A DNA stretch of 64,000 nt, taken from the IMG/VR virus record IMGVR_UViG_3300010334_000030, positions 32,001-96,000 of that record; one strand, 5' to 3'. Positions 1-58,833 of the stretch are shown here, piece by piece. The position numbers and the translations under genes were made by a program. Source of the DNA: a virus. The notes beneath the pieces were generated by a model. The model made no database searches. It saw nothing but the letters and a program-made list of their open reading frames with translations, and was not told where the DNA came from. The first letter of the stretch is position 1, and the number at the start of each line of letters is the position of its first letter.

Positions 1-1944
1 TTGTGTATTTGATGAAACTGTTGTTGTTGTAACCAAAGTCTGTATGTTTAGGGTGTCACCTGCTGAAAAAGCAGCTGAAGATATAGCCGATGAAGAATAC
101 ACAACTATACCTGAAGAAGATTGATAAGTGTTAGAACTAAATTTATAAAATGTGCTTAATGCCGCTGATATATCCGATAACAAATAGGTGTGAACTATCC
201 CACTTGAGCCAATTGTTAATATTTTAGCATCTGAGGTTGCACCAGTAAGACCAGTTATTTTAATAGGGTCTGAGGTATCTGAAACAGATAATTTACCGTT
301 TACATTTAATTTATAGCCAGAATCAGTTGTTGTTCCTATAAGTACATTTCCAGATGGGTTTATTCTTAGTCTCTCTGTGCCGTTAGTGTTTACCACAAAA
401 GTTCCATCAATACCAGCGTCACCTATCCAGCCATCAGTATCAGTGTTCCAATAAAGGGAATTGGCTCTAAGTGATCCACCAAAAGTACCCCCCGCAAGAG
501 TGTTAAATCCACCTAGTCCATCTATCTGAAATCTTATTTCATTTAATTGATTATTTACACCCCTTATAAAGGTTCCGCCTACTCCGCCATTCTGATTTAC
601 CAGTAATAAAACTCCCTCATTATTGCCAGTATCTCTAGTGTTTTGTATTTTAGAAACAAACCCTTTATATGCAGTAGGACCAGCATATCCAGGGTTAAGA
701 TAAGTCCCAGTAGTTCCTGTACCCCCTATAACATCAAAGAAGCTGGAAGGTCCAGTAGTTCCTATAGCAGCTTGAATTCCATTATCATAGATTACGGAGT
801 TATCTAAATCTACCGAGGATTTCCATCTAGCTAAGTATCCAGTTGCTCCAGATCCGCCTACGGTTCCAGAGGCACCTTTTGGTCCGGTGGCTCCAATTGC
901 CCCTGTAGATCCAATTGGTCCAACTGGACCAGCACTTACTGGATTAACCCATTGAGAACTGTTCCCGTCATCTATCCAAACATATTCTACGCCGCTTGAA
1001 AGATCATACCATCTTTCACCAGAGGTTGAACCAGTTGGCGCAGAGGAAGCTCCTTGAACATAGTACTTTCCTGAACCTGCAGGACCAGTTGATCCGGTAG
1101 AGCCAGTAGCACCTGTTGATCCAGTTGCTCCCGATGATCCAGTTGCTCCCGTAGCCCCGGTAGAACCTGCTGTTCCGGTTGATCCTGTAGAGCCATTAGA
1201 TCCAGTAGGACCTGTAGATCCAGTAGCTCCAGTAGCTCCTGTCCCAGTTGGTCCAATCTGAATGTACATAACCTGTTGAACTGTTAATATAATAGACGGA
1301 ATAGCCGGAATTGCTGGTGGACCTGTCTGTGGTACTTTTGCTAATATCCTCATATTGGCATCATCGCTGTGCCAATATAATTCTAGATATTCGTTAGGTC
1401 CAGTGGAGCTATAGAAAAAATTCCATGCGGGTATGGCTTTAGCGTCATTTCCAGATAGTGTTATCTGACTATTTGTATAAGGAACATTTTGTCCATTTGC
1501 GGAAAGCCAGATATCTGCAACATCATCACCGGAATCAGTTTTATCGAATTGTGCGGAGAATTGTATATTATATGTTCCCGGATTGGCTAGGGTTATTCTG
1601 GAAGCTGTGGCCCCTGTACCCCCTGTAGCTGTTAGAACGGAAACCCCATTCGCCCCCGCAGTGGTGTTAAAGGTCATCACATTCGCTCCAGTAGAACCTT
1701 TTACATTTGTTTGTGTGGTGGTGTCATAAAAAGATCCATAGTAGCCAATAGACCCAACACCAGGGGATCCGGTAGGACCAGTTGCACCGGCTGAGCCAGT
1801 TGCACCGATTGGTCCAGTTGCACCGCCTCCACCACTACCAGCAGTAAAATCCCACTGATAACCATTCCAAACCCAGATAACATCTTGTCCGGTTTCACGG
1901 TTTATAAAAACTTGTCCAACACGGGGATTTTGAGGATATATCAT
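1..1944 (-). CDS. Collagen-like tail fibre/adhesin protein (3' partial, runs off the window)
   Basis: Not in the ORF track. Manual translation from ATG at 1944 ([13 protein letters not shown]...) stays open to position 1. Contains G-x-T collagen blocks, a BclA/C1q-like domain ([10 protein letters not shown]...[11 protein letters not shown]) and a fibre segment ([27 protein letters not shown]). Confidence 0.8.
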
Positions 1945-1950
1945 CGATTT

Positions 1951-1958
1951 TATATATC
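1951..1958 (-). promoter_or_regulatory. GATATATA putative late-promoter motif
   Basis: Intergenic, 6 nt upstream of ATG at 1944; recurrent motif. Confidence 0.6.
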
Positions 1959-1961
1959 GAA

Positions 1962-2408
1962 TTATTCAAAAGGAGATGATTTAACATCAACACTAACTTT
2001 GATGTTCTTTTTAGCTATTCCAGACGGTCTAGAAAGATCAACAGCAATCTCGTCCCTATTCTGTCTGAGAGGTTTCATCTCTATATTAACATTGATTCCA
2101 AACTGATTTAATGTGCTCTTGATATGGTGAGCAGTAACCTTTATTTCTTTGTTGACCTCTTTTGTTTTCTCTAGATCGTTAACTCTAATAACGATTTTCC
2201 TGAACTGGTCAACAACTTTGCGATCTACCTTGTTTTCTAACCACTTCCAAGGCTCCTCGTCAGGGATAAATCCACCAGCACCTCCTACCGCATTACCAAT
2301 CTCAACGAGAATATAAACTTCGCTCCAAACGAAGTCTATAGTTCCTGGTGGTCCCCCGCTCCAGTAAACTCTAGGATCACTCCATGGTAGGTATATCTTT
2401 TCTGACAT
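1962..2408 (-). CDS. Hypothetical protein
   Basis: 148-aa ORF packed between neighbours; no recognised motif. Confidence 0.65.
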
Positions 2409-2421
2409 CTATTAAAAAATT

Positions 2422-5400
2422 TTATCCAACACCACCTGCTCCCAAAAGAGATTGTGAACTAGGTGCAGCTGTAGCTATAAATCCTGTGCTTGATCCTATT
2501 GAACTATTAGCTCCTATATACCAGGTGTTTGTTGCAGGACTTGGTGTTAAAACACCTAAAGTGATATAATCACAATAACAAACTATTCCTTTTCCAATTT
2601 TTGCTAATATTGGAGTTGGTGCAGCTGGTCTATTCATAGTTATTAAATTTCCAGCACTTCCTCTAACATTAAATTTATAAAAACTTTGTGTACTTGAAGA
2701 TGCAAAAGTTATTGTATGAGCTGCTGTAGATGTATTATCTATAAAGTTTGCAAATGTATTATTACCGGATATAGTTGTTGCAGCTGTGGAAGATCCTTTT
2801 GCAAGTTCTACTGTATAATAGGTTAATCCACCTCCTGCAAATGTGCAAGCTGTGACTGAGGTGTTAGTCATTACTATTCTACTTTGCTGAGCATTGAAAG
2901 TAAGACTTGTTGCTAAAACATTCCAAATTGTACCTGTACCTGTAAGTGTCCATGTTCCCCATCCCATATTAATAGTTCTCGTATTAGCAACTGATGATGC
3001 AAACGATCCGCATGTTATATTAGCCCCGTTATTAACATTAATTGTTCCTGCTGTAAGTGTAAATGCACTTGATGAGCCTATAGATAAATTAGCATTTACA
3101 CTTAAAGTTCCCAATGTTACAGTTAAAGTTCCTGTTATAGTTAATGTCCCTGAATTTTGAACAGTCGTGGTAGCAGAATTTATAATGATACCTGTGCCAA
3201 GAGTTATAGTTAACCCGTTAGATGTTATTGTTTGCGTAACGGATGTTCCTAAAAAAGTTAATAATCCTCCTGATACTGATGTTGCTGTTGAAGATAGGGT
3301 AAGATCCCCATAAAAAGAAGCACTACTTAAACTAATAATTCCTGAAAATCCTGTGAAGTTTACTGTTTTATAGTTTGCAGTAGATATGGCTACAGTATCA
3401 GAACCGTTAGTTACATTAACATTTATGGCATTAGCTTCTGCTACAAGACCACTAGATATCGTTCTAGTTGCTGCACTTCCTGAGTAAGTAAGGTTAATAG
3501 TAGGATTTGTGCCCGATATAGTTAATCCTGTTGTTGTCCCGGTGTTCCAAATTGTTTGCCCACTCCCCGTAATATTAACTGTCGATGTTCCAAAATTTAT
3601 TGTTCTAGCACTAGAAGTACTAGAACTAAATACAAATATATTATGAGTATAGCTACCAAAATTCAATGTTCCTGCTGTTAAGATAAGTTGGGATGCATTA
3701 ATTGTAGAGTTTGCATTAAAATTAGTCGACCCACAACTGGTTATTGTTACCGTAGCATTAGTGGTAAACACATCAACAAAAGTGAAAGTTCCAGTAAGAG
3801 CACCAGATGAACTTAGTGTGTCATTTAATGTAACTGTTCCTGTAACAAGACTTTTGCCTGCAAGGGTTATCCTTGAGTTACTTGCTAATGCATATCCTGA
3901 TCCTCTAAATGTAAATGAAGGCGTAGCTATTGGGGTTGCCATTGTAGAGACAAAAGTAAGATCGCCATCTATAGTTAAAGTATTACCAGCTGCATTATTT
4001 AAAACTACATTTGTTCCTCCACTGAATATGAGTTCAGCCATATTACCGGTAGTGAAAGAAACTGTAGCTCCCCCTGTATTTGTTACATAAACTCTAGGAT
4101 CCCCGGTAGTAGCCACAGCAAGTGTTATTGCTCCCGCTCCAGTTCCCCCAAGTTCACAATATCCGCTTCCTGGATAAACCACAGTATTGAATGTCAGGGT
4201 TCTAGATGCTACTTGTCCGCCCCAGACGTATATCGAAGCTATACCCCAGTTTAAATTTGTAGTTGTTGTTGCTGTTATTAGTGTACCAGATCCAGTTAAA
4301 TATAGATCAGAGCCATTTCCAAATGTTCTAACTGCTGTGCCTGACGTCGACACGTTACCTATAAAGGATGTGGTTTGAGGAGAAAAATATCCAGCAGTTA
4401 AAGTTAAGGTTCCTGATAAATAAAAAGTGTCATTCACAATAAGTCCAAAACTGGGCGTGCCAGGTTGGCTTATTGTTATATTTCCTGTTAGGGTTTTACC
4501 GTTAAACGTAAAATAAACATAACCAGCTGTTCCCGGATTAGATATGGTTATAGGAGGGGATGCTGTTATGGTCATAGCTGTGCTGAGAGTTAAAGCCCCG
4601 GCATCGGTGCTAAAGGTGACAGCATTTGCAGCACTATTTAGATTAACATTGGAATTTACTACACCCGGTCCTGGATATACATCAGTAAAAAGTAAATAAT
4701 AAAAATTACTAACACCAAAACTAACACTAGCTCCACCCGTGTTTAAAATGGAAAAATAGTAGAGGTTACCTGTTATTGTATAAGATCCAGTTCCGCTTCC
4801 TGTTATGTACATACCATTTTGGGGAATTGATGCTACAGCTAGGGTTTGTGTTATGGTCTTAGCTGACGATGTTGCATCATTAAACTCATAGTATGTGAAA
4901 TTAGTTAATGAACAGTTAGTACCAGTAACATTCCAGATTGTACCAATTCCGGTAATGGAAAATGTTTGTCCATTTCCAAATAAACTCCTAACAAGAGATC
5001 CGGTTGATACAAATAAACCAACAGAAAATCCATAGTATGGCTGAAGGTTTCCTTGGGTTAGGGTTAATGTTGAAGTCGATAGGGTTATAAAATCATCATT
5101 GGTGTACCAGTTAGATCCTGATCCGCTAAAGGTAACGTTCCCTTGAATAATCTTTCCGCTAGTGTAGATATTCCCCGTTACACTGGTTCCTGCAAAAGTG
5201 ATTGTACCATTATAGGTAAGAGTCATCCCTGGGGAAAACACCAAAGACTGAAGGCTTACATCGGCCCCATTAATCGCTAATGTAAAAGTGGTTCCGGATA
5301 GAGTTCCGGTATACCCTGTCATTACAAGGCTTTTACATGTAGCATTAACTGATATAGTGCAGTTACCATTATATGTGTTATTGAATATAACATCATCAGC

Positions 5401-5490
5401 AGCAAGAGGCACAGCAGCAGGAGACCAGTTTGCAGCTGTTCCCCAGTTAGCTCCTGTAGCACCTGCGTATATCCAAGTCTTAGTTGCCAT
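2422..5490 (-). CDS. Large beta-helix/autotransporter-passenger-like repeat protein, probable virion fibre or adhesin
   Basis: 1022 aa, T/G/S/N-rich; N-terminal WGTAANWS...ADDVIFN; about four imperfect repeats of LTLT(A/Q)G...S...(V/A/T)R(T/S). Confidence 0.65.
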   Translation of the reverse strand: MATKTWIYAGATGANWGTAANWSPAAVPLAADDVIFNNTYNGNCTISVNATCKSLVMTGYTGTLSGTTFTLAINGADVSLQSLVFSPGMTLTYNGTITFAGTSVTGNIYTSGKIIQGNVTFSGSGSNWYTNDDFITLSTSTLTLTQGNLQPYYGFSVGLFVSTGSLVRSLFGNGQTFSITGIGTIWNVTGTNCSLTNFTYYEFNDATSSAKTITQTLAVASIPQNGMYITGSGTGSYTITGNLYYFSILNTGGASVSFGVSNFYYLLFTDVYPGPGVVNSNVNLNSAANAVTFSTDAGALTLSTAMTITASPPITISNPGTAGYVYFTFNGKTLTGNITISQPGTPSFGLIVNDTFYLSGTLTLTAGYFSPQTTSFIGNVSTSGTAVRTFGNGSDLYLTGSGTLITATTTTNLNWGIASIYVWGGQVASRTLTFNTVVYPGSGYCELGGTGAGAITLAVATTGDPRVYVTNTGGATVSFTTGNMAELIFSGGTNVVLNNAAGNTLTIDGDLTFVSTMATPIATPSFTFRGSGYALASNSRITLAGKSLVTGTVTLNDTLSSSGALTGTFTFVDVFTTNATVTITSCGSTNFNANSTINASQLILTAGTLNFGSYTHNIFVFSSSTSSARTINFGTSTVNITGSGQTIWNTGTTTGLTISGTNPTINLTYSGSAATRTISSGLVAEANAINVNVTNGSDTVAISTANYKTVNFTGFSGIISLSSASFYGDLTLSSTATSVSGGLLTFLGTSVTQTITSNGLTITLGTGIIINSATTTVQNSGTLTITGTLTVTLGTLSVNANLSIGSSSAFTLTAGTINVNNGANITCGSFASSVANTRTINMGWGTWTLTGTGTIWNVLATSLTFNAQQSRIVMTNTSVTACTFAGGGLTYYTVELAKGSSTAATTISGNNTFANFIDNTSTAAHTITFASSSTQSFYKFNVRGSAGNLITMNRPAAPTPILAKIGKGIVCYCDYITLGVLTPSPATNTWYIGANSSIGSSTGFIATAAPSSQSLLGAGGVG

Positions 5491-5741: not shown

Positions 5742-5751
5742 ATTGATTGAT

Positions 5752-6465: not shown

Positions 6466-6469
6466 GATT

Positions 6470-6477
6470 TATATATT
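6470..6477 (-). promoter_or_regulatory. AATATATA putative late-promoter motif
   Basis: Intergenic, immediately upstream of ATG at 6465. Confidence 0.5.
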
Positions 6478-6480
6478 TGA

Positions 6481-8154
<1,674 letters not shown>

Positions 8155-8198: not shown

Positions 8199-9545
8199 TT
8201 ATATATTAAAGTTTGCTGCTATTCTAATACCATACTGACTATTTTTCGATTCTAAGCTTGGCACCATATCGTCGTAGTGGTAATAAACTCTCCATGCTCC
8301 ATTAGGGTTAGGTTCTTCCCCTCCATTTGTTTCGCTTGAAGTCCAGTAATAATAATATGGATTATACGCATCACCAATTGCATCTAGCCTTTTATTAAAA
8401 AAATCTTTATGGTCACTTATATAAGTGTGATAAGAAAGAGTTGGCAAAAATGCATCCGGATATCCTGCAAGGTTTCCATAAGCTCTAGCAGCCCATGCAG
8501 CAGTTGCTTCATAGTTAGGATATCCTGATGAGTATGCAATAATAGTATCGGTATTACTCTTACCTGCTGTTATGTCATTAGATGTACCCAATTCTATCAA
8601 AGGAGCTTCTGGCTGTGTCCAGTCCATATTACCAGCATCGGAAGACCAGCCTAAATCAACTATTCCATCGGCATGACCATTTTGGAGATTATTTATCGTT
8701 ATGATAGTACCGCCACCGTAAGACTGTCCAACAAATAGAGGATTATTTTTTTTATATCTCACAGCAAACTTACTGTACATGTAGGCTACTTCTTGCGCTG
8801 ACAATACTCTGTTATACATCATTGCTATAGACATCATTCCGTACATGTAGTTGTGATTTTCAAAAACCTCTAGAAAATCACCTATTTTAACTATTTGATC
8901 ATTTTCAGTGCCGTATAGAGGGGTGGTATCATCATAATTAGATGCCTCTAAAATACCATCTATATAAAGACTCCATCCAGCATCTACAGACCAGGTAACG
9001 CAAACAAAATACCACGTGCCAGGAAGTATTGGATGATTTTTATCTCTATCTGTTTTAACACCTCCTCCTCCGTTATTATTTGCCCATATGTTTGCGCCAT
9101 CATACCATAGCCTATGTGGGGATCCTGCATTTGTAATAGTACCACTAAGAATGTCTTGTATGAAAGATTGGCCATAGTTAGGTCCTGAGTTATAACCTAT
9201 ACTATTAAAATTAACCCAAACACATTTGCTATAACTTGTGTTTGGAAACTCGACGCCAGTAATAGGGGCTGGCCGATCTCCTTCAAATGTTAAAGCCCCA
9301 ATACTTTTCTTTCCATTGTCCGCGTAACCCCAAGTGTCCATCCCAGCTGAAACGTTAAAAGCAGTGTTTCTTCCCCGTCCGCTTAAATCATACCACTCAT
9401 GTGTGGTAATAGAAGAATCAGTCCATGAATAGGGGTTTCCTGCATCAAGGTATAAGATTAGCCCATCCGTTATAGGATCTATTTGGTTAGCCCCAACGGT
9501 AACTCTGCCAGTAAGATTAGCGCTGCCTGCAATGTTTACACTCAT
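8199..9545 (-). CDS. LamG/concanavalin-A-like domain protein with DUF1566-like (C-type lectin fold) C-terminus
   Basis: [11 protein letters not shown]...WYDLSG and WYFVCVTW...LYIDG...[10 protein letters not shown] (LamG); VGQSYGGG...GKSNT...FLPT...YWTSSE...AW. Likely start at 9545 (ATGA overlap with upstream stop). Confidence 0.75.
8200..8207 (-). promoter_or_regulatory. AATATATA putative late-promoter motif
   Basis: Overlaps the stop of the upstream gene, about 45 nt before ATG at 8154. Confidence 0.45.
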
Positions 9546-10693
9546 ATAAGTCTTGCTCCAATTTTTATTATCCAATCACTGGTACCTGTTACATTCGAAT
9601 ATAATGAAATGCCAGTGCCACCGTTATTTACCACAGTAAAAGAAACTTCAGACGTTCCTGTTGTTCCTGCTGCATCCGGCGTGGATGTGTCAGTCCACCT
9701 TACGTCTCCTGCCGCATTCCAAGCAGCCATCACTGTTCCTGCTCTAAAACTTGACATTTCATCATCTATATGATAGTCAAAATAAGCCGCATGATAATTT
9801 CCAGAAGATATATCAAAACCTATTAGTAGAGACGGGGAAATAGCAGTATTAACAAGTGATGTAATAGTATTAATATAATATGTCCCATTAGAATTAACTG
9901 CAAATGCAGGATTGCCTTGTATTTGGCCAACAGAGAGGATATTCCCATTAGTCCCTGTATCTCCAGTTAATGTAAACACAGTTCCAGAAGCTCCAATCAC
10001 ATTGACTATATCCCCCGATGTTCCGCCAGCAGCACCAATCTCCAGAAGAGTGCCGTCAAATGTCATATTGGCCTCTGCATTGGCAGCATTAGTAGTCCCA
10101 TCGGATGTTAAAATCCGGGTTGCACCTGGATTAGAGATTGTATCAAATCCAGGACCTTGTGGTCCTGTCTCCCCTGTTGATCCAGTAGCTCCAGTTGATC
10201 CTGCAGTTCCGGTAGCTCCTGTAGCTCCTGTAGCTCCAGTTGATCCAGTTGATCCAGTTGATCCAGTAGCTCCAGTTGATCCAGTTGATCCAGTTGATCC
10301 TGTAGCTCCAGTTGATCCAGTTGATCCAGTTGATCCAGTAGCTCCAGTTGATCCTGCAGTTCCGGTAGCTCCTGTTGATCCTGCAGTTCCGGTAGCTCCT
10401 GTAGCTCCAGTTGATCCAGTTGATCCGGTAGAACCTGTTGATCCTGTTGATCCTGTTGATCCAGTTGATCCAGTTGATCCAGTAGCTCCTGTAGGACCTA
10501 TAGGACCTCCTGCAGGGCCAGTTGGACCTATTGGTCCAGTAGGACCCGTGCCACCTCCACCTCCGCCGGAAATCGTTATCTCATCGCCCAGACCATTGTA
10601 AAAATTACCAAATCCATCAGTCTGTAAAACGTTCTGAAATGTGAATGAGATCTTTTGGTCGGTGAGGTTATAATTTGGATTATTACCTGACAT
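9542..10693 (-). CDS. Collagen-like fibre protein
   Basis: Long G-(S/A)-T triplet run plus C-terminal beta domain (AAYFDYHI...[10 protein letters not shown]). Confidence 0.8.
10150..10550. repeat. 9-bp-period tandem repeat encoding collagen G-x-T triplets
   Basis: Arrays of gatccagtt / gctcctgta units. Confidence 0.9.
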
Positions 10694-29105: not shown

Positions 29106-29112
29106 ATCTATT

Positions 29113-30882: not shown

Positions 30883-30903
30883 TTAGGTTTAATGGTTTAC
30901 TGT

Positions 30904-32688: not shown

Positions 32689-32689
32689 T

Positions 32690-45526: not shown

Positions 45527-46189
45527 ATGTCACCTATGCAAAACCAGCCAAAAAAGCCAAAAAATTCAATAAGGTTTAATATCACCTTAAATGAGGAACA
45601 AAAAGCGGCTAAGGAGAAGATATTGCAATCAAAAGTATCCTTTCTAAAGGGTCAAGCAGGTAGCGGTAAATCACTACTAGCAGCTCAGATAGCTTTGGAT
45701 CTACTCTTTAAAAAAGATGTTAAAAAAATAATACTTACCAGGCCTGCAGTTACCGCTGGTGAGGAAATTGGATTTCTGCCAGGCGACAAAGACGCTAAAT
45801 TAGCTCCATACACAGCTGCTATCTATGACAACATGTACATGCTGTACAATAAAGAAAAAATAGATAAAGAGATCTCAGAAGGAAATATAGAGGTTATACC
45901 TATTGGCTTTATGAGGGGTAGAAATTTCTCTGATTGTTGTGTAGTTATAGACGAATCTCAAAATATCACTCAAAATCAATTAGAGCTAATTATAACCAGG
46001 CTTTGTGTAGGTGCTAAAATGGTTTTTGTTGGTGATAACTCACAAATAGATCTAAAAGACAAAAGGCTAAGCGGATTCGACTGGTTATCAAAAAAACTAA
46101 GTTTTGTTGAAGGTGTTTCTGTTATATCTCTTAAAACAAATCACAGAGATCCAATAGTAGAAGAAATTCTTAAAGTTTTAAACGACTAA
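45527..46189 (+). CDS. phoH: PhoH-like ATPase
   Basis: GQAGSGKS, IILTRP, IGFLPG, FMRGRNF, IDESQN, GDNSQID, HRDPIV. Confidence 0.95.
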   Translation: MSPMQNQPKKPKNSIRFNITLNEEQKAAKEKILQSKVSFLKGQAGSGKSLLAAQIALDLLFKKDVKKIILTRPAVTAGEEIGFLPGDKDAKLAPYTAAIYDNMYMLYNKEKIDKEISEGNIEVIPIGFMRGRNFSDCCVVIDESQNITQNQLELIITRLCVGAKMVFVGDNSQIDLKDKRLSGFDWLSKKLSFVEGVSVISLKTNHRDPIVEEILKVLND

Positions 46190-49100: not shown

Positions 49101-50235
49101 AATAAACGAAATTCCATCCTGTGGCTCCTGAATACTTAGAAGATGCATAAACGTGAGGAACGTCATATTCAAACGATGCAAGCGTGTTATAGCCAAGAAC
49201 CCATAAAGAACCGGCTCTTACGTCAAAAGAATTTTGACCTATATTATCACCTACGAGCTCGATACCAAGCACATTGTCGCTAGATAAGGAAGAATTAGAA
49301 GAATTAAACTGAGTGTGTGAAGTGCCGTTAAAATGCCAAATACCAGTACCCTGGCTAAGCTCGCCATCTCCCTTAGAATAAAATACGTGACCATTCTTTC
49401 TAGCTTTCACTAATGTTACTGGACCGGTCGTTCCATAGTTCCAAAAAGAGACCCCATTGAAATAAGATAAACCTATATCCGTACCTATCCAGAGATTTCC
49501 ATCTTCATCAAAGTCAAGTGAATATACGGTATCAGATATTATGCCTGATGTTTTTGTGTTATAAACAGTGGCTTGTTTTATAATTTTAGTTCCATCGTTT
49601 AAAGAGATTGTAGAAAGACTTCCTTGAGGAAAAACATATAAACCCTCTTTTGTTCCAATATAATAGAGATAGCTTTTTCCATCTACACCCTTCGTTTTAA
49701 TATCATAAATATGAGGCCATATATAGCCTTCAACTTCTTCATACCATCTATCAATTTCCTTCAGATAATAAAAAAGTCTTCCGCCTGTAGAACCCTGAAT
49801 CCTACTATATGTTGATGCAGCAGCGGTTAAACCAGTTCCGTTTAATGGACTGCAGAAAGCAAGGATATCATCACCAAAAGGACAAGCATATATGAGAGAG
49901 ATCTCTTGTTGAACGTCAAATGTTCCTAAGTCTGAAAATTTCCAAGAATTTCCAATTTCAGGATTGTTGGTGTCAATGTTGAAAACAGCAACCTGATTAT
50001 ATCCAGATTCCACCCCTTGTGCAACTCCACACCATAGCGTCTCTTCATTGTCTATGGAAAGACATCTGGTGTCTAAATAGTAAGGGCTTCCATTTGGTTG
50101 AGGGACAGCAGAATTCTGGTATCCGTAATATTCCCAGGACATCCCATTGAATCTTCTTATATCTTGTCCAGAACCCCAAACATAGAACTCGTTATCTACG
50201 TCTATTTGATTTATGTATAAATTTGCTGTTGGCAT
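46186..50235 (-). CDS. Large beta-propeller protein with PKD/Ig-like C-terminus, probable virion appendage
   Basis: Two-component-regulator-type propeller blades (SLDFDEDGNLWIGTDIGLSYFNG); C-terminal YTFTKSGYYQIYNQVED. Confidence 0.65.
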   Translation of the reverse strand: MPTANLYINQIDVDNEFYVWGSGQDIRRFNGMSWEYYGYQNSAVPQPNGSPYYLDTRCLSIDNEETLWCGVAQGVESGYNQVAVFNIDTNNPEIGNSWKFSDLGTFDVQQEISLIYACPFGDDILAFCSPLNGTGLTAAASTYSRIQGSTGGRLFYYLKEIDRWYEEVEGYIWPHIYDIKTKGVDGKSYLYYIGTKEGLYVFPQGSLSTISLNDGTKIIKQATVYNTKTSGIISDTVYSLDFDEDGNLWIGTDIGLSYFNGVSFWNYGTTGPVTLVKARKNGHVFYSKGDGELSQGTGIWHFNGTSHTQFNSSNSSLSSDNVLGIELVGDNIGQNSFDVRAGSLWVLGYNTLASFEYDVPHVYASSKYSGATGWNFVYYSPTGGASPSPIPKVNKYTWTYPEWRVYQNDELEYKHPGLDPRNLFLTTKLSDIADGRAGEQAYWNNYPIPTYDQDLLINKIQSPKWITQLNPNIGNDYEFKITSSATLTINGSNRLYIGGKIAQNKSINFGSYNDGTPLTITGTNGFNINSTDTGVSYTGFVVSYDDCGCVKSSITFNGSSTEVTSIKPSPDGNSIVLAGTYNLLIENGSYVYSGLASAVTGYSNGPSGAPLGITNSGLTGATSGAYPWIYSATGATGSKYTNGAVSSLTYRYSPGNSATSGNCDFLIPTGATAGSFGSVSTILLNETQYTSVSAYSYLDNLPFRYAMTIGTAASPSLYGYYSILSGYKEIIATKTRFVFQVSFQSGSGSTSIPTTSDLVFNVYTYSNKTFPLIPSLSSLLSNTVLSSKQAPGVFVAEVEKDLGEITSFTGITGGYNESIRKSYRVINFRSFPSTSIWSGSYDSSSVTCDVTDYTVNVLIPHYNKLSTLKNLWLRNNDSYKSPEYLTDLTFDWRFLSCLSLNRDDFSIRSGINSASNQDLFYNDHTLSISSLNTGSSLITGYLPYIIPYVPPAFNFGGTDLTSSSGYESQPYYILVSSEGFGVTGGFIENGLTAGATAEIYSTKTGTSYYITTAFGPTASYFGANVNSWSVGTGGNPIKRAITAQITEQASVRRIFSFDLGESYNGAPFLKDARILSNGQYFMSYSNFNSTKTKYVTNIVKTDTKGNILDSNNFGTRSIDLIFSTSKSSDIYMTSSSYGTTGAGTGFISPIYPAYFTLKSEQYKPELGINLGNIISRPGSGAWTWCDVHSSNNHLEIPLMSTVVFNNYSSDIYGKKNNVWILSDSLTGEEILNVKSTPYFIYTFTKSGYYQIYNQVEDSFGNVYEASLPGFIQVIDHKNKRPDDNNPNFVDSTDYGYPEPSFVSRDYDVRKLEDDLMVQEKEILENNRIQFGVEVVIPDNPDATFDSEPA

Positions 50236-50261: not shown

Positions 50262-52283
50262 TTATCCTGGGAAATACCATCCTCTTCTGGCAGAAGTTCC
50301 CCCCACTGTGTATTGATAAGGATTTGCTATAGTGCTTTGCCCTAGCCCCATCCAGTCGACGGCTGTGTATTTTGGCCCAGTTGTTCCAGGAAACCAAGAA
50401 GCAGAGTTATCAGTAATAAGAACTTTAACAAGATAAAATCCATTGGTCACACCATATGGGTTAGGATTACCCGTTTTAGTATTAAATACATAATCCTCAT
50501 AGATTGAAAATTTCACGCCTTGAACATACCAACAAGCAGGCTCCTCAGCACTAACAGTTGAGGCATAAGCGGTTTCTCTCCATTGGTATTCCGGAGCAGC
50601 AGTGGCTCCAAAATAATATTTAAGATTAATCCCTCCGGTAACACCATAACCATTTGGAGCTGTAGTGGCAAGCTTAGAATTAATAATATCAACAAATCCA
50701 CCAGTGACTCCGTGAGGAGGTACACCCATATTCGTCGGTCTGTTATTAGCATACATTAAATTTCCATCATAAGAATTTCCAGTAGCACCTGAAGCCCCGA
50801 TGGTAATAGTAACTGCTCTTACTGTCTGGGGAGTAAAGCTACGAGAATTGTTAAAATAAAACGTAAAAGTTAAAATAATATCAGACTGAGCCCACTTTCC
50901 GGATGGTAAAACTCCGCCCATTCTGAATGGTAGTTTACTGTAGTATCCAACACTTGTATCGAGTCGCGACTCACCACCATTTAGCAAAAGAGTAGCAGCA
51001 GGGGTTAAACGAGTAGTTGTTGATTCATATCCTCTGGATGTTAGACAAGCAAAGCTTGTATCATTTATGTAATTGGTTATTGCATAATTTGACCAATATC
51101 TGTTAGTATTCGGGGTGTTATCTTCCCGATAATAGGGATCAAGCGGAATTTGATTGTTAGTATCCGCATAATAAAACTTATACCCCAAAACACTACTATA
51201 AATATCACCAGGGTACATGTAATTTCCCACAGAATATCTAGATAGTCCTGAAATGTTAAAAGGGGATACTGATAAATCGGTTGCATCATAACCAAAATCG
51301 CTATTGTTCCATTGGTATATAGTCAATTTGATCAAGCCAGAACCACTATAAGGCTCTAAAGTAGTTAGAATGGACCCAGAAGAAATCGTCTGTCCGGTAA
51401 GCATACCTGGGGTAAGACCAGGATAACTAAATTCGAAAAATGGACTGTAATAATAAATAGGTTCTCCCTGAGAATGAAAGGATAGGTTTGACATACCAGA
51501 TCCGCCCGGTTGAAGAAGATTTACACATATAATAGGACCATTTCCGCCCAGTCCAACGTTAGTTGTAGATACAAAATCATAAGGATCAACAACAGCTGAT
51601 AAAAATCTTTGCGTCTTATGTGGCGTTGTGCTATTTGCAGCTGGATAGTCTGCTAGATTTAAAAAGTCTGTGATCCCACTTTTGTTGTACGTGACACTGG
51701 TTGATGCACTATAAAGATTTCCTGTCGGGCTCGTTACAGTAAGAATAGCTGATGCAGTATATGGCGAATAAGTCGATCCAGATTCAGAGCCTGTTAGATC
51801 TCCCCAGTCGAAAATGTTTTTTGTTACTGATATGTTCTGTTTAGATGTTCCTGTAAATCCCACAGCTCCACCAGTTCCAGGTATTAAAAACTGATAATAA
51901 TAAGACCCTGTAGCAGAACTCCTGATTGTGCCAGTAGCCTGGAATTTTACATTTTGACTCATATCGACAACATTGGAAGGAGATCCTATAGGAGCACCTG
52001 CTGTTGTAAGGGTAATTATAGAGAGGTTTTCAATTTCAGATACAACGGAAACGTAAGAGGGAATAAAAATTGTATCGGTTGCTCCAATAGAATCTGTTGC
52101 TGTCAATCCTGCTCCGTATCCAGATGGGTTCTTTACAATATATCTTGTCGTAATGTTTGGAGAACTTCCAGTTGACGGTGATCCCCCAGGCAGATTCCAC
52201 GTTCTAGTAACCACAGTTCCTGGGGTAGTGTCATAGTAGTAAATGTAATCTCCTTGAACTATATAAACTTTATTGTATGCCAT
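50262..52283 (-). CDS. PKD-domain virion protein
   Basis: N-terminal DTTPG....RTWNLPGGSPSTGSSPN...Y PKD pattern. Confidence 0.6.
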   Translation of the reverse strand: MAYNKVYIVQGDYIYYYDTTPGTVVTRTWNLPGGSPSTGSSPNITTRYIVKNPSGYGAGLTATDSIGATDTIFIPSYVSVVSEIENLSIITLTTAGAPIGSPSNVVDMSQNVKFQATGTIRSSATGSYYYQFLIPGTGGAVGFTGTSKQNISVTKNIFDWGDLTGSESGSTYSPYTASAILTVTSPTGNLYSASTSVTYNKSGITDFLNLADYPAANSTTPHKTQRFLSAVVDPYDFVSTTNVGLGGNGPIICVNLLQPGGSGMSNLSFHSQGEPIYYYSPFFEFSYPGLTPGMLTGQTISSGSILTTLEPYSGSGLIKLTIYQWNNSDFGYDATDLSVSPFNISGLSRYSVGNYMYPGDIYSSVLGYKFYYADTNNQIPLDPYYREDNTPNTNRYWSNYAITNYINDTSFACLTSRGYESTTTRLTPAATLLLNGGESRLDTSVGYYSKLPFRMGGVLPSGKWAQSDIILTFTFYFNNSRSFTPQTVRAVTITIGASGATGNSYDGNLMYANNRPTNMGVPPHGVTGGFVDIINSKLATTAPNGYGVTGGINLKYYFGATAAPEYQWRETAYASTVSAEEPACWYVQGVKFSIYEDYVFNTKTGNPNPYGVTNGFYLVKVLITDNSASWFPGTTGPKYTAVDWMGLGQSTIANPYQYTVGGTSARRGWYFPG

Positions 52284-52304
52284 TTTAAATCAGATTTCTT
52301 AAAT

Positions 52305-52312
52305 TATATATT
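52305..52312 (-). promoter_or_regulatory. AATATATA putative late-promoter motif
   Basis: 21 nt upstream of ATG at 52283. Confidence 0.5.
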
Positions 52313-55300
52313 TTAAATTATCATACTAGTGGTACCTCCGGTAGAGCCAAAAGAGACTTTAAATAAAGGACTACCCCCAGGAACACTACTAGGAGGAAGG
52401 TACGAAGAATTTGTTATAGAAAAATTATTAACGCTCAAATTTGTAGGCGGTGTATCCGTTGAGAGCGGTCCTGATTCAGTAGGAATTGGTCTATAATAAA
52501 AATTAGAAACGTACATGTCGGAGGACGAATTTAACTGATCTGCTAATTCTTGGATACTTAAACCTGCAATCCCTTGCTGTATAGTTATTCCTGTAGGAAA
52601 TGGATAAGATTCATTAGCTGTGCTTAATAATATATTATCACCCGGTCTTATATTATGAAGCTCGTACCCTCCTAACCAATCATTATTAAATTCAAAATCA
52701 TACCAACCGTGAGCGTATCCATTATCCCACGTGTTATCTTCAAACGTATTCCAGTTAATCCTTTTAGTTCCCCAATACTTAAGATTCTTATTGGGAAAGG
52801 TCAGTGAGTACTCTGGCCAGTAAACATATTTGGAATCAACGTTCAATCCACCTGTCATTCCAGTATCATAGGAATTTAAAATTATCGAGCCAGAAACAGA
52901 TAATGATACTTTTGATCCATTCTGGTTTGCCCCCAGATCAGATGGTGCTGTAATTTTAATTGTTGCCGGATCTGCTGTCGGATTATCGCAGGATGCAAAA
53001 TAGTCAGGATAGGTTCTTAATGAATTAACGGAGGAAACTATCGAGTTTACTGTTGAGTGAAGTGTATCACCAGCCTCGGAGGATCCAATAAGTCTATCGT
53101 TTATATAAATAGACATTTTCCCTGCTGAGGTCATCTTTTGATTTGGGTACCAAGAGGCGGAAACGTCTACGGTAAGTCTAGTTGGAGAAGAAGCAGTATA
53201 CACAGAGCTCCAACCAAGTTCAAGAATTATAGGAATCTCAAATGTTGTGTCCGATGTAACAATACAATTCCATCTCCCCATTATCTGTGGAACTGAATTT
53301 TGGATAGAAACTACGTCGCCAGTAGTTAAATTATGTGTGGATGCTGTTGTTACCGTAGCAAATCCATACTGAATACCAGTTATTAGATACGAAGAAATGT
53401 CGAGTATTCCCAAAACATTCTGGGTAATAACAATATTGCTATAAGCAGATGAAGGCTGTGTTTTTATTTTTACGTAAACATCCTGTCCCTCTTCTGCCTT
53501 GTTTCCATAATTTGAAAAATTAAGGATCTCTTCAGGAATTGATTTTTTAAGAACCTCTATAGAGGATCCTTCGGCAGGGAATTCCCAAATTGAGTTGTAT
53601 TCCTCCCATGCTTTGTAAGTGTCTTTCCAGTCATACGTTTCAACTTCTCTGAATCTTGTCCAAGCATCGACTTTAATTGTTTTTGGACTAACCTTTATTG
53701 CCCCATCTTTTATTACTGTATTTTTAAAATTAAATCCATCTATAACATTGCAGGTAACTTTGTACTCTCCTGTATAAGGAACAAAATGCGATAAACGGTA
53801 GAAGTCTGATATTGGTCCTCTGAAAATAAAATTATATGGGCTTCCGCTCTGAGTTGTTGATTTATTTACGATCCACTCTATCTCCACCATGTTGGAGAAA
53901 TCAATATTCGTCCAGGTTAGCAATCCATATTTTTGTGATGTTGCATAGAGGGAATACGAGTCAAATGTTACTGTTGGACCCCCATCCAGCTTAATGCTAT
54001 AAGTTTCATCAAGATAACTAACAACCGCAACTACAGTTCCATTCTGACCGTAATAAGAGCTATTTGGGGATTTTACATTAACTCTTGTTCCTATTGAAAA
54101 TATAGGAAGTATAACGGAGGTCCAGGTAAAATTCAATTCATCCCATGTCCATCTATCAGGGATAAGTTCTAAAACTACTGGCATTCCTATAGGATTCTGA
54201 TATGGAAGACCAGTAACAGGATCAACGTAAACAGGGTAATCGTAATTGTATGCACCATCTCCAAGATCCTTTATTTTTCCCTGCTGCTTTAAATCATAAA
54301 AATTTGAGATTGCAGAAATCATCGAGGAGTTCTGTGATGGGGAAAATCTTTGTTGCGAAGAAAGCGGATCTACAGTATTTCCAAGATCTGATATGGTGGA
54401 AGGTAAAACTGTGATCTGTCCATTTAGTAGAGATTTATTATTCGATGAAAAATAATAAACAGGCGATGTTTGGGTAGGATTAACATACCAGGTCATTGGC
54501 GATCCCCCTGATATAGCACCATTTCCGGTAAGACCAGTCGGAGCAACAATAGAGGATAAAGTTGGATCTGTTGTTATATAAAAATCAAATCCAGTGGTAC
54601 CTATAGAGAATTCATAGGATTTACCAGAGGTTACCGAGAAAGTTGGATTTGGTGTAAGATTAAGTGAATCTGAAATTCCTTTAAAGTATAAAGCACTGCC
54701 GGTGCCACCAGCAACGCTAGCTGTTATTTCATACTTATTGTAATAATTGGACGGAGCTTGTATAGAATTAGAATAAGGTCTAGTTGAAAAATTTCTAAGA
54801 TCCTCTAAAAATCCAAAATCAGGATTTGCTTTTATTTGAAAATCAAACCCAGCACTTATTTCTGATCTGTCCATAGTATCAGTCCAAACACGGGTATTAT
54901 AAATGTCAAAATAAACTCCCTCTCCAGTAATATCAACTATTCTAGCATTTAGAGGGAGATAGTCTCTTTTGAGCCTCTCTTTTAATGCAAACAGTTTTAT
55001 CAGAACTTCCTCCTGCGTAAATGCAAAAGCGTCAGTAACTTCAGGATACCCATAATCTGAATCATTCCCTGTCACTTTGTTGAGATCGTAATACAATCCA
55101 AATAAAGCAGTTTTTTTATATGTTTTACTTGGAAGTAGTGTATCCTGCGAGGAAAGATTAAGAACATAGTTTCCGTCCGAATCCGGGCCATACGTTTGTG
55201 TTAACTTATACTTTCCAGTGTTCTCATTATTTATAAGATCAGATATTTTATAGTTCTGACTGTATCCATTTGCTTCTTGATCTGCATTTATTTGATCTAG

Positions 55301-56566
55301 AAACTCTTGATTACTTTGAAGAGGTGATGTGACTTGAGTTTTACCATATTCTAGATTAAGCCAATACTCCTTTATTCTTAAATCTTGATAACCAAAGAAC
55401 TTAAGGGCATTAACTAGACCTTTATAACTACCTGCATATGGGAATATGCTTTCACCAGCCACCATTAGCTCTTTCCTTTTCTGGTTTATTTCAAGGTAGT
55501 TTGGCATTGGTTCCTCCGGGTCATGGTCTCTAAGAATAATCGAATCTGACTGGTAAAAAGCTCGTCCTAGATTTTTAAGAAGAACGTTAAATCTTTCGTC
55601 TTCCCCTACAATCTCACCGTAGAAATTCACCTCTAAAACCTTAACTGGGCTAGGTCCTGTTATATCCTCTACTACAAGTCTTCTCTCATAAATATCAGAA
55701 TAAAGATCACTAGAGTTAAGGGCAACATTTATCGATAATGATTCTGATGTGATATTTGATGACTCGATATACCCACCAACATTAGAGTAGTAGTCATCAC
55801 TAGCTATTGCATCTATCGGATAAACTACATTTGGATAATTTATTATTATTGGCTGTCCTTCTCCGCCAGGTAACCTATCCTCTATTTTATAAGTGAATAT
55901 GATCTCAGATACATCAGTTTCACCATATTTGTCATTATACCATCTCGTTCTCCATTTTCCCTGGGCGGTTCCACCTGTCCCTCCAGTGAATCCAGTATGC
56001 GGTAACCCATATTCAATAGATCCTAAAGGATTATACATTTCTTGAACAATAAAAATTTGCTCATTCTCATAGAGTCCAGAAGAAACTGGATCAAAATAAA
56101 TGCTTCCCTTAAAATATCCGCCTGGTCTGTACTCGTAGGATGTTTTAAAATAAACTTGATATCCTTGACTTATTGTCTTCTGACCTGAAACTTGCCCAGG
56201 ATAAAAGTTAACAGTATACGTTCCAACATTAGTTGAAATTGATGATATTTTACCTTTGAATTCTTGTTGTCCAGCAATTCTACCATATAGATAAACGTCC
56301 GCTCCTTTTAACAGAAAGTCAAAAATCTCTTTAGCCCAATCAGATATATTAAACCCATTTAAATCATTAAGATTAAATGTTAAAGATGCTGGATCGGAAT
56401 CAAGAAGATCCACATCAAATTCACCAACACTCGAAGATCCAGAAGAACTTCTAAAAGTGAATTTAGAGTCAAGTGGGGTTGGTCCAGTCGGGCCAACATA
56501 ATCAAAATTCAGGGGATCCCCGTGTTTATTAAAAAAGTTAAGCCTTCTATAAAAAAAATTAGACAT
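52313..56566 (-). CDS. Large baseplate wedge-associated protein (gp7-like candidate)
   Basis: 1417 aa downstream of the gp6-like gene; YAGSYKGLVNALKFFGY..L.IKEYW segment. Confidence 0.5.
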   Translation of the reverse strand: MSNFFYRRLNFFNKHGDPLNFDYVGPTGPTPLDSKFTFRSSSGSSSVGEFDVDLLDSDPASLTFNLNDLNGFNISDWAKEIFDFLLKGADVYLYGRIAGQQEFKGKISSISTNVGTYTVNFYPGQVSGQKTISQGYQVYFKTSYEYRPGGYFKGSIYFDPVSSGLYENEQIFIVQEMYNPLGSIEYGLPHTGFTGGTGGTAQGKWRTRWYNDKYGETDVSEIIFTYKIEDRLPGGEGQPIIINYPNVVYPIDAIASDDYYSNVGGYIESSNITSESLSINVALNSSDLYSDIYERRLVVEDITGPSPVKVLEVNFYGEIVGEDERFNVLLKNLGRAFYQSDSIILRDHDPEEPMPNYLEINQKRKELMVAGESIFPYAGSYKGLVNALKFFGYQDLRIKEYWLNLEYGKTQVTSPLQSNQEFLDQINADQEANGYSQNYKISDLINNENTGKYKLTQTYGPDSDGNYVLNLSSQDTLLPSKTYKKTALFGLYYDLNKVTGNDSDYGYPEVTDAFAFTQEEVLIKLFALKERLKRDYLPLNARIVDITGEGVYFDIYNTRVWTDTMDRSEISAGFDFQIKANPDFGFLEDLRNFSTRPYSNSIQAPSNYYNKYEITASVAGGTGSALYFKGISDSLNLTPNPTFSVTSGKSYEFSIGTTGFDFYITTDPTLSSIVAPTGLTGNGAISGGSPMTWYVNPTQTSPVYYFSSNNKSLLNGQITVLPSTISDLGNTVDPLSSQQRFSPSQNSSMISAISNFYDLKQQGKIKDLGDGAYNYDYPVYVDPVTGLPYQNPIGMPVVLELIPDRWTWDELNFTWTSVILPIFSIGTRVNVKSPNSSYYGQNGTVVAVVSYLDETYSIKLDGGPTVTFDSYSLYATSQKYGLLTWTNIDFSNMVEIEWIVNKSTTQSGSPYNFIFRGPISDFYRLSHFVPYTGEYKVTCNVIDGFNFKNTVIKDGAIKVSPKTIKVDAWTRFREVETYDWKDTYKAWEEYNSIWEFPAEGSSIEVLKKSIPEEILNFSNYGNKAEEGQDVYVKIKTQPSSAYSNIVITQNVLGILDISSYLITGIQYGFATVTTASTHNLTTGDVVSIQNSVPQIMGRWNCIVTSDTTFEIPIILELGWSSVYTASSPTRLTVDVSASWYPNQKMTSAGKMSIYINDRLIGSSEAGDTLHSTVNSIVSSVNSLRTYPDYFASCDNPTADPATIKITAPSDLGANQNGSKVSLSVSGSIILNSYDTGMTGGLNVDSKYVYWPEYSLTFPNKNLKYWGTKRINWNTFEDNTWDNGYAHGWYDFEFNNDWLGGYELHNIRPGDNILLSTANESYPFPTGITIQQGIAGLSIQELADQLNSSSDMYVSNFYYRPIPTESGPLSTDTPPTNLSVNNFSITNSSYLPPSSVPGGSPLFKVSFGSTGGTTSMII

Positions 56567-56569
56567 ATC

Positions 56570-57103
56570 TTAAAATACTCTTCTGTTATTTTTTTTAACT
56601 GTGTAGTTAAAAAAGTTTTTAATTTGTTTTGTACTTTCTACTAATCCATATATCACCATATCAAAGTAATGAAGTATTCCCTCTTTAATGGGATCTTTGT
56701 ATATTACACTTGAAAGAGTTCTTTTTAAAATCTGTTCCTTATAGATAAATCCCTCCTGAACGTTATCATTTACGCTATCCCTTATATCATAAATATTCTG
56801 GGTTGGATCATATTCATACCAATGCCTTTCCATTGGAATTTTAGGAAGTTCTTTCATCAATTTGCGATAATCTTTACTATCCGAACAAGGTGCAAATTTA
56901 TACTCTTTACTATTTGCTAAAATTAATCTGTACCCAGAGCATCCTATATTATAGGCTCTAGATTCTGCCAGATCTTGTGTATCATAAATATCTCTAGAAT
57001 TATAGAAAGTTGATGATGATGTCTGAGGCTTTATCCCTACCTGAGTATAGTTTATCCCTTTATCGGGATCGGGGAAAAACGGGGAGTATTCTTTTTCTGC
57101 CAT
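56570..57103 (-). CDS. Hypothetical protein in the baseplate cluster
   Basis: 177 aa; AESRAYNIGCSG...APC Cys pair. Confidence 0.55.
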   Translation of the reverse strand: MAEKEYSPFFPDPDKGINYTQVGIKPQTSSSTFYNSRDIYDTQDLAESRAYNIGCSGYRLILANSKEYKFAPCSDSKDYRKLMKELPKIPMERHWYEYDPTQNIYDIRDSVNDNVQEGFIYKEQILKRTLSSVIYKDPIKEGILHYFDMVIYGLVESTKQIKNFFNYTVKKNNRRVF

Positions 57104-57105
57104 TC

Positions 57106-58833
57106 TTAGTTAGAAGATTTTGTAATTTGAGCCTTGGTGTTAGCATTTAATTCCGCTCTGTAATCTTTCTTAGTAGTAGAAGATACACTCATATTTAATG
57201 GTCCTGGTTTTCCTTCTACTATACCCTCCGTATAAGTTATACCGTTTCTATCTGTCCAACCACCTCTTAAAACTACAAGCTCATTTCTACCTATAACTAT
57301 ATCTCCGAAATCATTAAGTCCTAACAACTGCGACATTTGTTGATCGGATATATTTGTAAGATCCTTCATCTTTGACTGATTCTCCTCGTTCTTTTGACCA
57401 ACAAAGTAGAGATTGACTGAATCGACACCATCTATAGATTCAACTATAGCTATCAAATCGGATTTAGGAATATAATCCCTTCTTGTCGTATTTAGCATAT
57501 ACGTAGATATTCTTTTCCTAATTTCTTTCTTTACTGATTCTGGATCATACCCTTCAAAAATAGTAAAAACAACATTCGTAACATATCTAGATATTACAGG
57601 ATCAACTATTTGTATTACCGTTGTAGCTATCATAGATCCTGAATCCTGAATAAGTTTAACTATCATTTTTTTCTGTGGTTCTGTTAATAGAAAATCTTCA
57701 ACAGGAACACTGAAATAATCTTGATTAGACGAGATGTTAAGTGTAATATTAGGTATCAAATAAAGATAAACAACATTATCATCGTCCAAGTAATCGTCGT
57801 CAAAAGTAGAGAATGCTTGTATTTGAGAAAATATACCAAGTTTATCTAGAAAGATCTCATAATTTTGGGCATTTGCAAAAACAAACGATCTACTAACTTT
57901 AGGAGCAACCAGTCTTATTAAATTGGTAGAGTCTGGATTTGTTCCAAACATCGGATCTATACTTTGTTTAATATCTAAATAATTTCCAAGATCCACTTCT
58001 TTACCAAAAAGATCTGTGCCTGTTTGGTTGAATTTATAACTTATTGGATTATCTTTAGTGGATGCAACATTACCTCCTGTTCCTACATTTTGAAGGTATT
58101 CTATTCTTATTTTAGATCCCTTCTGGGGAACCATTCCAAAATTAGAATTACCGAAATAAATATCTATGCCTTCCTGAATTCCACTCTTGACGAGATATCC
58201 CTTTTTGTTTAGAGGGATGTCATAAAGAGAATCGTATCTTTTCCATTTTTCCTCATTAACATAAACATCAACATAAAATTGATCTACAAATGAAGCGGAT
58301 TGTATAGGAATACTAAAGCTCTGTAGAGAAAGACCTGTTCCTGTAACTGTAAAAGAATTAAATACACCCTGAACTATTTTACATCTAATTGGATTAGTTC
58401 CTCCTGTAAGCGGAATTGTTAATTTCTGAGCTCCTAGAACGAGCGAGTAAGTTCTACCGTTCTCTTGACATCTTATTTGTGTGTGGTTACTTAGAATGAT
58501 ACATCCCCCTCCAACATCAGACTGTAATGTGTTCCAGGAAACAAAAACTTCACCCTGAGCCGATGTCGATCTTCCCGGATCATATCCAGAAATTCTAGCC
58601 AAGCTTCTTACTGAATAATCCCTTGTAGCATTTTCTATATTTAGCTCCGTAATAGAATCCTCGATAAAGTATAATATCATTTGCGATAGATTCTGAACGA
58701 CAAACAAAATTTGTCCCCATGCAGAAGCAACTGTGAACAAATTTACGGTCTGGTTATAAGTATCCTGTAGAAAATTAAAGGTGTCAGTTAAGAGTCCGTT
58801 AATCAGGATGTTATTTTTCTTAAAAATATTCAT
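57106..58833 (-). CDS. Baseplate wedge subunit (T4 gp6-like)
   Basis: ENATRDYSVRSLARISGYDP, IYFGNSNFG..P, IEYL...G.GGN; follows the gp25-like gene. Confidence 0.8.
   Translation of the reverse strand: MNIFKKNNILINGLLTDTFNFLQDTYNQTVNLFTVASAWGQILFVVQNLSQMILYFIEDSITELNIENATRDYSVRSLARISGYDPGRSTSAQGEVFVSWNTLQSDVGGGCIILSNHTQIRCQENGRTYSLVLGAQKLTIPLTGGTNPIRCKIVQGVFNSFTVTGTGLSLQSFSIPIQSASFVDQFYVDVYVNEEKWKRYDSLYDIPLNKKGYLVKSGIQEGIDIYFGNSNFGMVPQKGSKIRIEYLQNVGTGGNVASTKDNPISYKFNQTGTDLFGKEVDLGNYLDIKQSIDPMFGTNPDSTNLIRLVAPKVSRSFVFANAQNYEIFLDKLGIFSQIQAFSTFDDDYLDDDNVVYLYLIPNITLNISSNQDYFSVPVEDFLLTEPQKKMIVKLIQDSGSMIATTVIQIVDPVISRYVTNVVFTIFEGYDPESVKKEIRKRISTYMLNTTRRDYIPKSDLIAIVESIDGVDSVNLYFVGQKNEENQSKMKDLTNISDQQMSQLLGLNDFGDIVIGRNELVVLRGGWTDRNGITYTEGIVEGKPGPLNMSVSSTTKKDYRAELNANTKAQITKSSN

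Follow-up and report, generated by a model that had tools for sequence, protein, structure and literature searches.

Introduction

The exosporium of Bacillus anthracis carries BclA, a collagen of GPT repeats that is O-glycosylated on threonine. The cytoplasmic, metal-dependent enzyme SgtA (CD3350) of Clostridioides difficile, a protein of 358 amino acids (aa) with a GT-A glycosyltransferase (GT) domain at residues 1-260 and four tetratricopeptide repeats (TPR) at residues 262-358, transfers β-O-GlcNAc from UDP-GlcNAc to the threonine of GPTG and GATG peptides, single-site peptides included, derived from the collagen part of BclA3, a collagen-like glycoprotein of the exosporium, and it also takes serine in vitro (PMC7157674). 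In mycobacteriophages, according to Freeman et al. (2023), as cited in PMC12619734, phage-encoded glycosyltransferases modify the structural proteins of the phage itself in the cytoplasm before release. Here, we analyzed a stretch of 64,000 nucleotides (the window), which comprises bases 32001-96000 of a 141-kb linear IMG/VR phage contig (IMGVR_UViG_3300010334_000030; CheckV completeness 51%), and in which the four-residue word G-x-T-(G/A) recurs both in long collagen-like runs and as scattered single copies in virion proteins. An earlier reading of the letters of the window (the sequence-only reading) had taken this word for a possible O-glycosylation sequon.

By its domain layout, the glycosyltransferase of this phage can be likened to SgtA, with a GT-A/GT2 domain followed by TPR and a core of about 360 aa, and each is paired with a collagen-like surface fibre rich in Thr and built of G-x-T triplets. 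In contrast to the SgtA/BclA3 pair, the enzyme here is phage-encoded, its gene is not adjacent to those of its presumed substrates, and the word is also dispersed singly over about ten non-collagen virion proteins, with serine excluded. BclA of B. anthracis shares with the phage proteins a G-x-T collagen-like filament on the particle surface, in which threonine is the established attachment site of the glycan (in BclA), but the particle is a spore, not a virion, there is no dispersed sequon, and nothing comparable to the rhamnose/anthrose pathway of the BclA glycans was found in this 141-kb contig. The mycobacteriophage glycans are reported to be located on C-terminal extensions of capsid and tail-tube subunits. 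In the present phage, the capsid is not enriched, and a defined four-residue word on the fibres and outer baseplate provides the candidate sites. Listeria GmaR and the SunS/ThuS enzymes resemble the phage glycosyltransferase as GT2 proteins with helical or TPR modules that glycosylate Ser, Thr, or Cys of proteins or peptides, but the matches are weak, and their substrates are flagellin and glycocins.

Results

The word is enriched in large virion proteins beyond composition

Runs of at least four G-X-Y triplets were masked, after which each protein was shuffled separately; masking at two or more triplets is invalid as a test since it deletes G.TG by construction. The large virion proteins of the genome contained 77 copies of G-x-T-[GA], compared with 24.1 expected from whole-protein shuffles and 28.2 ± 4.6 from shuffles within 10-residue windows. 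Since the excess persisted in the latter, it is the order of residues and not the regional composition that is unusual. The non-structural proteins had 13 copies where 10.1 were expected. Thus, the comparison of structural with non-structural proteins proposed by the sequence-only reading gave an excess beyond composition in the large virion proteins only, and all the strings it had quoted as examples were found in the proteins named.

The excess was specific to threonine and to the residue that follows it. Of all dipeptides, TG was over-represented the most (196 vs. 114, z 8.7), and of the gapped pairs it was G at position i with T at i+2; a mild TG excess of about 1.2-fold is general. The observed-to-expected ratio was 3.9 for G.TG, 3.4 for G.TA, and 1.7 for G.TS, while the related words G.SG and G.T[^GA] both stood at 0.9 and G.[^T]G was depleted to 0.7. 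The codons of the motif matched background usage, and ACNGGN was frequent in frame 0 only (243 vs. 37 and 28 in the other frames), therefore the bias acts on the protein. The motif is a Thr-specific, protein-level feature that needs G or A at +1.

The scattered copies are not short collagen segments, because single G-x-T units made up 68 of the 72 runs and 66 of the 77 motifs had no glycine periodicity on either side; an origin from mini-collagen segments was rejected on the first of these counts. The X residue also differed, with Ser the commonest in arrays yet found in only 3 of 76 scattered copies. Except for three paralogues of about 590 aa, the enriched families have no homology detectable by blastp, and shared paralogous domains were rejected as the source of the motif for this reason.

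The proteins concerned are listed below in window coordinates, with observed and expected numbers of scattered motifs; (-) denotes the minus strand.

1..1944 (-), extending past the window start: collagen-like fibre protein, 748 aa in full, with (G-x-T)n runs; Pfam Collagen E 8.5e-9; Thr at position Y in 21/43 triplets; 9 motifs vs. 1.2
6481..8154 (-): long collagen-like protein, 557 aa, (G-[SA]-T)n; Pfam Collagen E 9.5e-32; Thr at Y in 64/77
9542..10693 (-): long collagen-like protein, 383 aa, (G-[SA]-T)n; Pfam Collagen E 5.2e-15; Thr at Y in 37/46
23925..26168 (-): virion-module protein, 747 aa; 3 vs. 0.63
27318..29105, 29113..30882, and 30904..32688 (-): three paralogues of about 590 aa, each with a short ordinary collagen segment at the N-terminus; 3 and 3 (about 0.5 expected each) and 5 vs. 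0.9
32690..38494 (-): fibre or baseplate-periphery protein, 1934 aa; 6 vs. 1.0
38525..42175 (-): conserved virion protein, 1216 aa, internal negative; 0 motifs, 0-4 in orthologues
42186..44387 (-): 733-aa protein with GTTGSYGITGAN at residues 174-185, kept in 26-28 of 28 orthologues
44412..45320 (-): conserved 302-aa protein; 6 vs. 1.2
46186..50235 (-): 1349-aa protein with a Reg_prop/β-propeller-like stretch; 13 vs. 1.5
50262..52283 (-): 673-aa protein with N-terminal tandem immunoglobulin-like domains and a C-terminal α/β domain; 6-7 vs. 1.2
52313..56566 (-): 1417-aa protein; 9 vs. 1.1
57106..58833 (-): baseplate wedge (gp6-like), internal negative; PHROG 219 E 9.6e-30; 0 motifs here and in 10 orthologues

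Uninterrupted G-X-Y runs of triple-helix length (PF01391) were present in the first three proteins, and no such runs were found at the scattered copies, 68 of the 72 runs being single units. The statement that position Y in the three long-collagen genes is almost always threonine applies to two of them and fails for the third, where about half of the triplets have it. There was no excess in the most Thr-rich protein (2422..5490; 3 vs. 4.7 expected) or in 8199..9575. Outside the window, the major capsid protein (genome 120421..122199, PHROG 138) had two motifs and was not enriched, and the portal and prohead protease had none. Since the capsid, portal, and prohead protease are not enriched, the word marks the fibres and the baseplate periphery, not the whole particle. 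Consequently, the earlier claim that the motif occurs in most structural proteins was borne out for about ten fibre and baseplate-periphery proteins but is too broad, several virion proteins having no excess, and the proposed coating of the whole particle is contradicted by the head proteins and several baseplate proteins.

Motif sites are partly kept and partly shifting among relatives

In the family of the 1349-aa protein, each orthologue carried 7-21 motifs, and 57 alignment columns held a motif in at least one sequence, with the sites at 135, 148, 370, 605, and 981 kept in 24-27 of 27 sequences. The same mix of kept and shifting sites was seen in the 302-aa, 673-aa, 1417-aa, and 1216-aa families. 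G-x-T-G at residues 235-238 of the 302-aa protein was present in 27/27 orthologues, with TG at 56-57 and 245-246 invariant; in the 1417-aa family, sites 25 and 620 were kept in 27/27 orthologues and site 195 in 25/27. The 673-aa family evolves fast (29% identity), and its members had 2-8 motifs compared with 1.0 expected, at positions that shift over 39 alignment columns. In all five families, the threonine of the motif was more conserved than other threonines, and rare sites were concentrated in variable, gap-rich regions of the alignments.

The sister phage LR756500 is syntenic with the window, and a profile search for the GT family found no homologue there, while the positive control worked. 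Seven motif sites were checked in three homologous proteins of the syntenic LR756500, and the motif was absent from every one; nearly all clade members keep it at five of them. Missing were sites 192, 195, and 620 of the 1417-aa protein and the site at residue 483 of the 1934-aa protein, among others, and several of the motif-less sites are bordered by sequence that aligns well (YG-PH..., ...LYF). One double site, in segment 174-185 of the 733-aa protein (42186..44387), consists for the most part of sequence inserted in the clade relative to this GT-lacking phage. Because the LR756500 homologues lack the word at 7/7 sites, it is not required for these folds. The shifting columns of the 673-aa family and the 0/7 sites in LR756500 accord with the independent gain proposed earlier, the motif having arisen at new positions.

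The phage encodes a predicted glycosyltransferase with an SgtA-like layout

A candidate for the phage-encoded modifier postulated by the sequence-only reading was located outside the window as an SgtA-like GT2+TPR gene. A PF00535 search of the whole contig returned a single GT2 gene (genome 14949..16208, minus strand, 419 aa), 16 kb before the window, with orthologues in 4/4 complete relatives. Around it are a gene identified by Pfam as an RNA ligase and genes putatively for adenylate kinase and ribonucleotide reductase. The GT2 domain is N-terminal (PF00535, 30.8 bits vs. a cut-off of 23.3). Residues 204-252 had sub-cut-off matches to TPR_16 and TPR_17 (24.6 vs. 32.7 bits and 22.3 vs. 24.4 bits, respectively), and TPR proteins in the PDB matched residues 204-307. 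Invariant in 32 family members were DTGSxD, D115-A116-D117 (DAD, the DxD motif), and H170-E171. The closest PDB structures were GmaR and SunS/ThuS (22ao, 7msn, 7msk), with weak E-values of 4e-8 to 1e-4; assignment to the SunS equivalog (TIGR04195) was rejected at 31 bits against a cut-off of 350.

Across 120 clade clusters, the identity of the glycosyltransferase was 67-88%, and the fibre proteins were less conserved (median 29-72%). The wider family comprised 2838 representatives at E ≤ 1e-30; many of the matches listed were 354-376 aa long, and these homologues span residues 30-395 of the phage enzyme. A complete relative of 430 kb (IMGVR_UViG_3300034116_002156, hereafter G001; region 211971-229222) has, at 227-229 kb, two more small GT2 genes, for products of 234 and 247 aa, which might extend the glycan; a second cluster of G-x-T arrays lies no more than 6 kb away.

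The enzyme family is coupled with G-x-T collagen genes and, in some phages, with the scattered word

The coupling was examined in 80 bacterial loci from many phyla with homologues of about 40% identity, a collagen open reading frame (ORF) being defined by at least six G-x-T triplets. Such an ORF lay near the GT homologue in 37/80 loci, and in 23/40 of those with full flanks; the nearest was at a median of 286 bp, and at 2 kb or less in 35/37, while the reversed-sequence control gave 0/80. GT2+TPR genes adjoin Thr-rich G-x-T collagen-like genes in Streptomyces, Chlamydiae, Polyangiaceae, Burkholderiales, Mycobacterium, and others, and one bacterial locus (L141) has a 1730-aa ORF with 439 triplets. 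Given the tight pairing in Streptomyces, Chlamydiae, Polyangiaceae, Burkholderiales, and others, these data suggest that SgtA/BclA3 is one case of a general bacterial system.

Among phages, the four records with an uninterrupted GT gene all contained (GxT)3G matches (85 in this genome, 49 in G001, 29 in LR756501, and 35 in the Tunturiibacter phage Tunturi_5). No match was found in six other records, namely five without the gene and LR745206, a 635-kb phage whose GT homologue (LR745206.1, 546390-547562) contains an in-frame TAA, which may reflect decay of the gene or recoding of the stop codon by the phage. In Tunturi_5, the GT gene is 4 kb from the collagen tail fibre gene gp29, whose product has eight G-[PA]-T runs. 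Four paralogous genes of about 283 aa (gp30-33) lie between gp29 and the GT gene gp35 (record 28905-38126).

Scattered motifs were counted, with collagen masked, in ORFs of at least 300 aa within 10 kb of the GT homologue at 48 viral loci, the homologues being at most 49% identical to the query. The count was 437 compared with 169 expected (2.6-fold), with a median locus ratio of 2.05 and p <.01 in 18 loci, and the excess was present both with and without arrays. The corresponding count for the bacterial loci was 340 vs. 279 (1.2-fold), and for the GT-lacking phage modules, in four to seven loci of one broad lineage, 30 vs. 21 or 36 vs. 27 (1.3- to 1.45-fold). No scattered excess was found in the regions around the homologue of the 1216-aa protein in seven distant phages, two of them with a GT homologue, the fibre genes possibly lying elsewhere in these genomes.

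Structural context of the motif

The model of the 673-aa protein (predicted local distance difference test score, pLDDT, 75; predicted template modelling score, pTM, 0.73) placed three of its seven motifs in strands and four in coil, one of the latter just before a helix. Since strands and coil alike carry the motif, it has no single structural context, and the surface-loop location assumed by the earlier reading found no support. The AlphaFold2 model of the 302-aa protein had a pLDDT of 45, too low to interpret. In PDB sequence searches with three motif-rich proteins, the only match was a Reg_prop-like stretch of the 1349-aa protein, whose residues 178-260 resemble the Reg_prop β-propeller repeats of Bacteroides hybrid two-component glycan sensors (PDB 4a2l, E 4.6e-8). 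From this resemblance, the stretch may be a glycan-binding receptor domain.

Discussion

We propose that a protein O-glycosyltransferase encoded by the phage uses G-x-T-(G/A) as its acceptor word and that the collagen fibres together with the single copies give a glycan coat, a reading to which we assign an even chance. In this mechanism, a cytoplasmic GT-A (GT2, DxD) enzyme of the SgtA family would bind its substrates through the C-terminal TPR module. Its primary substrates in the clade would be the (G-[SAP]-T)n collagen-like fibres, and about ten fibre and baseplate-periphery proteins, unrelated in other respects, would have acquired and kept single copies of the word, giving a glycan coat on the outer tail apparatus. 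The coat might stabilize the triple helix, shield from proteases or adsorption, or tune adhesion. The analysis shows the enrichment of the word, its specificity and evolution, the layout of the enzyme, and the genomic coupling of its family, and from there we infer the action of the enzyme on these proteins, the sugar used, and the function of the coat. Judging from the sequences, the fibres of this phage are probably sugar-coated. Glycosylation of the collagen runs is likely, while that of the scattered copies falls just short of an even chance. The widest form of the proposal must be put tentatively, with a probability somewhat below one half: a clade of large aquatic phages and many other phage lineages with the same enzyme family would use a defined four-residue O-glycosylation sequon, G-x-T-G/A, which would stem from the repeats of Thr-collagen and have arisen again and again on outer tail proteins that are unrelated to one another.

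Several observations speak against this proposal. SgtA accepts serine in vitro, and the phage motif excludes it. The GT gene and the collagen genes (genome 31698..42693) are not adjacent here, being 16-27 kb apart, and the former is placed among nucleotide-metabolism genes instead of the fibre module. The only interpretable model puts 3/7 motifs in β-strands, and the non-virion proteins do not avoid the word (13 vs. 10.1). The set of GT-lacking controls was small, and the co-occurrence counts ignore phylogeny. Outside their collagen runs, the bacterial partner proteins had no scattered excess (22 vs. 27), and neither did the few Tunturi_5 proteins tested, including the fibre gp29 (0 vs. 2.7). 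Therefore, the dispersed use would be special to some phages and is not general to the system.

The main rival explanation, which we regard as less likely, is that the enzyme modifies only the long (G-x-T)n collagen runs, while the scattered copies are unmodified and serve as strand ends, turns, or helix caps in β-rich fibre domains. It can draw on the many TG sites that are invariant within well-conserved blocks (e.g., YYTGFN, and TGxTG in the 302-aa family), on the strand positions in the 673-aa model, on the lack of scattered excess in bacterial partners and the tested Tunturi_5 proteins, and on the general mild TG excess. A purely structural role is at odds, however, with the enrichment of the word in families without detectable homology and in differing secondary-structure contexts, with the LR756500 homologues that fold without it at 7/7 sites, with a motif density that is kept while the positions turn over, and with the similar excess around distant GT homologues in other phage lineages. 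A target elsewhere (a host protein, the cell envelope, or DNA), with threonine serving only the stability of the triple helix or fold, appears improbable. The gene lies among early or metabolic genes outside the fibre module, GT2+TPR proteins are numerous and mostly uncharacterized, and the core glycosyltransferases of moraphages are listed without a known target (PMC12619734), all of which would suit such a role, but the homologues directly adjoin G-x-T collagen genes across many bacterial phyla, uninterrupted GT genes and arrays co-occur (4/4 vs. 0/6 phage records), and the experiments on SgtA anchor the family (PMC7157674).

That the motif is a by-product at the DNA level, either relics of slipped or recombined collagen triplets or recombination signals between fibre genes, is very improbable. 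The same genome does have long GGN-NNN-ACN arrays, the rare sites cluster in gap-rich alignment regions, and one site lies within an insertion relative to LR756500; against these stand the background codon usage, the restriction of ACNGGN to frame 0, the predominance of single units without collagen periodicity, and the near absence of Ser at the X position of scattered copies. An artefact of composition in Gly/Thr-rich low-complexity proteins has a negligible probability, because, although G and T are more abundant in the enriched proteins than in non-structural proteins, it is refuted by the 10-residue local shuffles, and the most Thr-rich protein has no excess while G.SG and G.T[^GA] are at or below expectation.

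Should the scattered word prove to be a true sequon, the sequence alone would reveal where phage fibres are glycosylated, and one core glycosyltransferase of widespread large freshwater phages would acquire a function, the targets having been left open in a similar lineage (PMC12619734). Virion glycosylation, so far shown in mycobacteriophages, would then extend to phages of predicted Bacteroidota hosts and to the receptor-binding apparatus, with a bearing on adsorption, stability, and recognition. Tailed phages would then have a glycan coat directed by a sequon, comparable to the N-x-S/T shields known from eukaryotic viruses.

Source genome and neighbouring genes

The contig contains 132 ORFs, nearly all on the minus strand. 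Pfam and PHROGs gave names for few virion proteins only, and a megablast search of one 5-kb stretch against a phage collection returned no match. Full-length orthologues of the 1349-aa protein were found in 33 uncultured relatives (42-52% identity, contigs up to 434 kb), and more distant kin include the Tenacibaculum phages PTm1 and pT24, the Flavobacterium phage MaF61, the Sphingomonas phage PAU, the Lak phages, and the LR7565xx huge phages. The phage resembles the freshwater "moraphages", which have predicted Bacteroidota hosts. DnaK and DnaJ are encoded in the genome, as identified by their N-termini.

Two further genes of the window lie among those described above. The motif-free product of 8199..9575, between the two long collagen genes, has a Laminin_G_3 (concanavalin-like lectin) domain. 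The gene at 45527..46189 (plus strand, 220 aa) is the sole plus-strand gene within the minus-strand fibre block, and its end overlaps the end of the gene for the 1349-aa protein by 4 bases.

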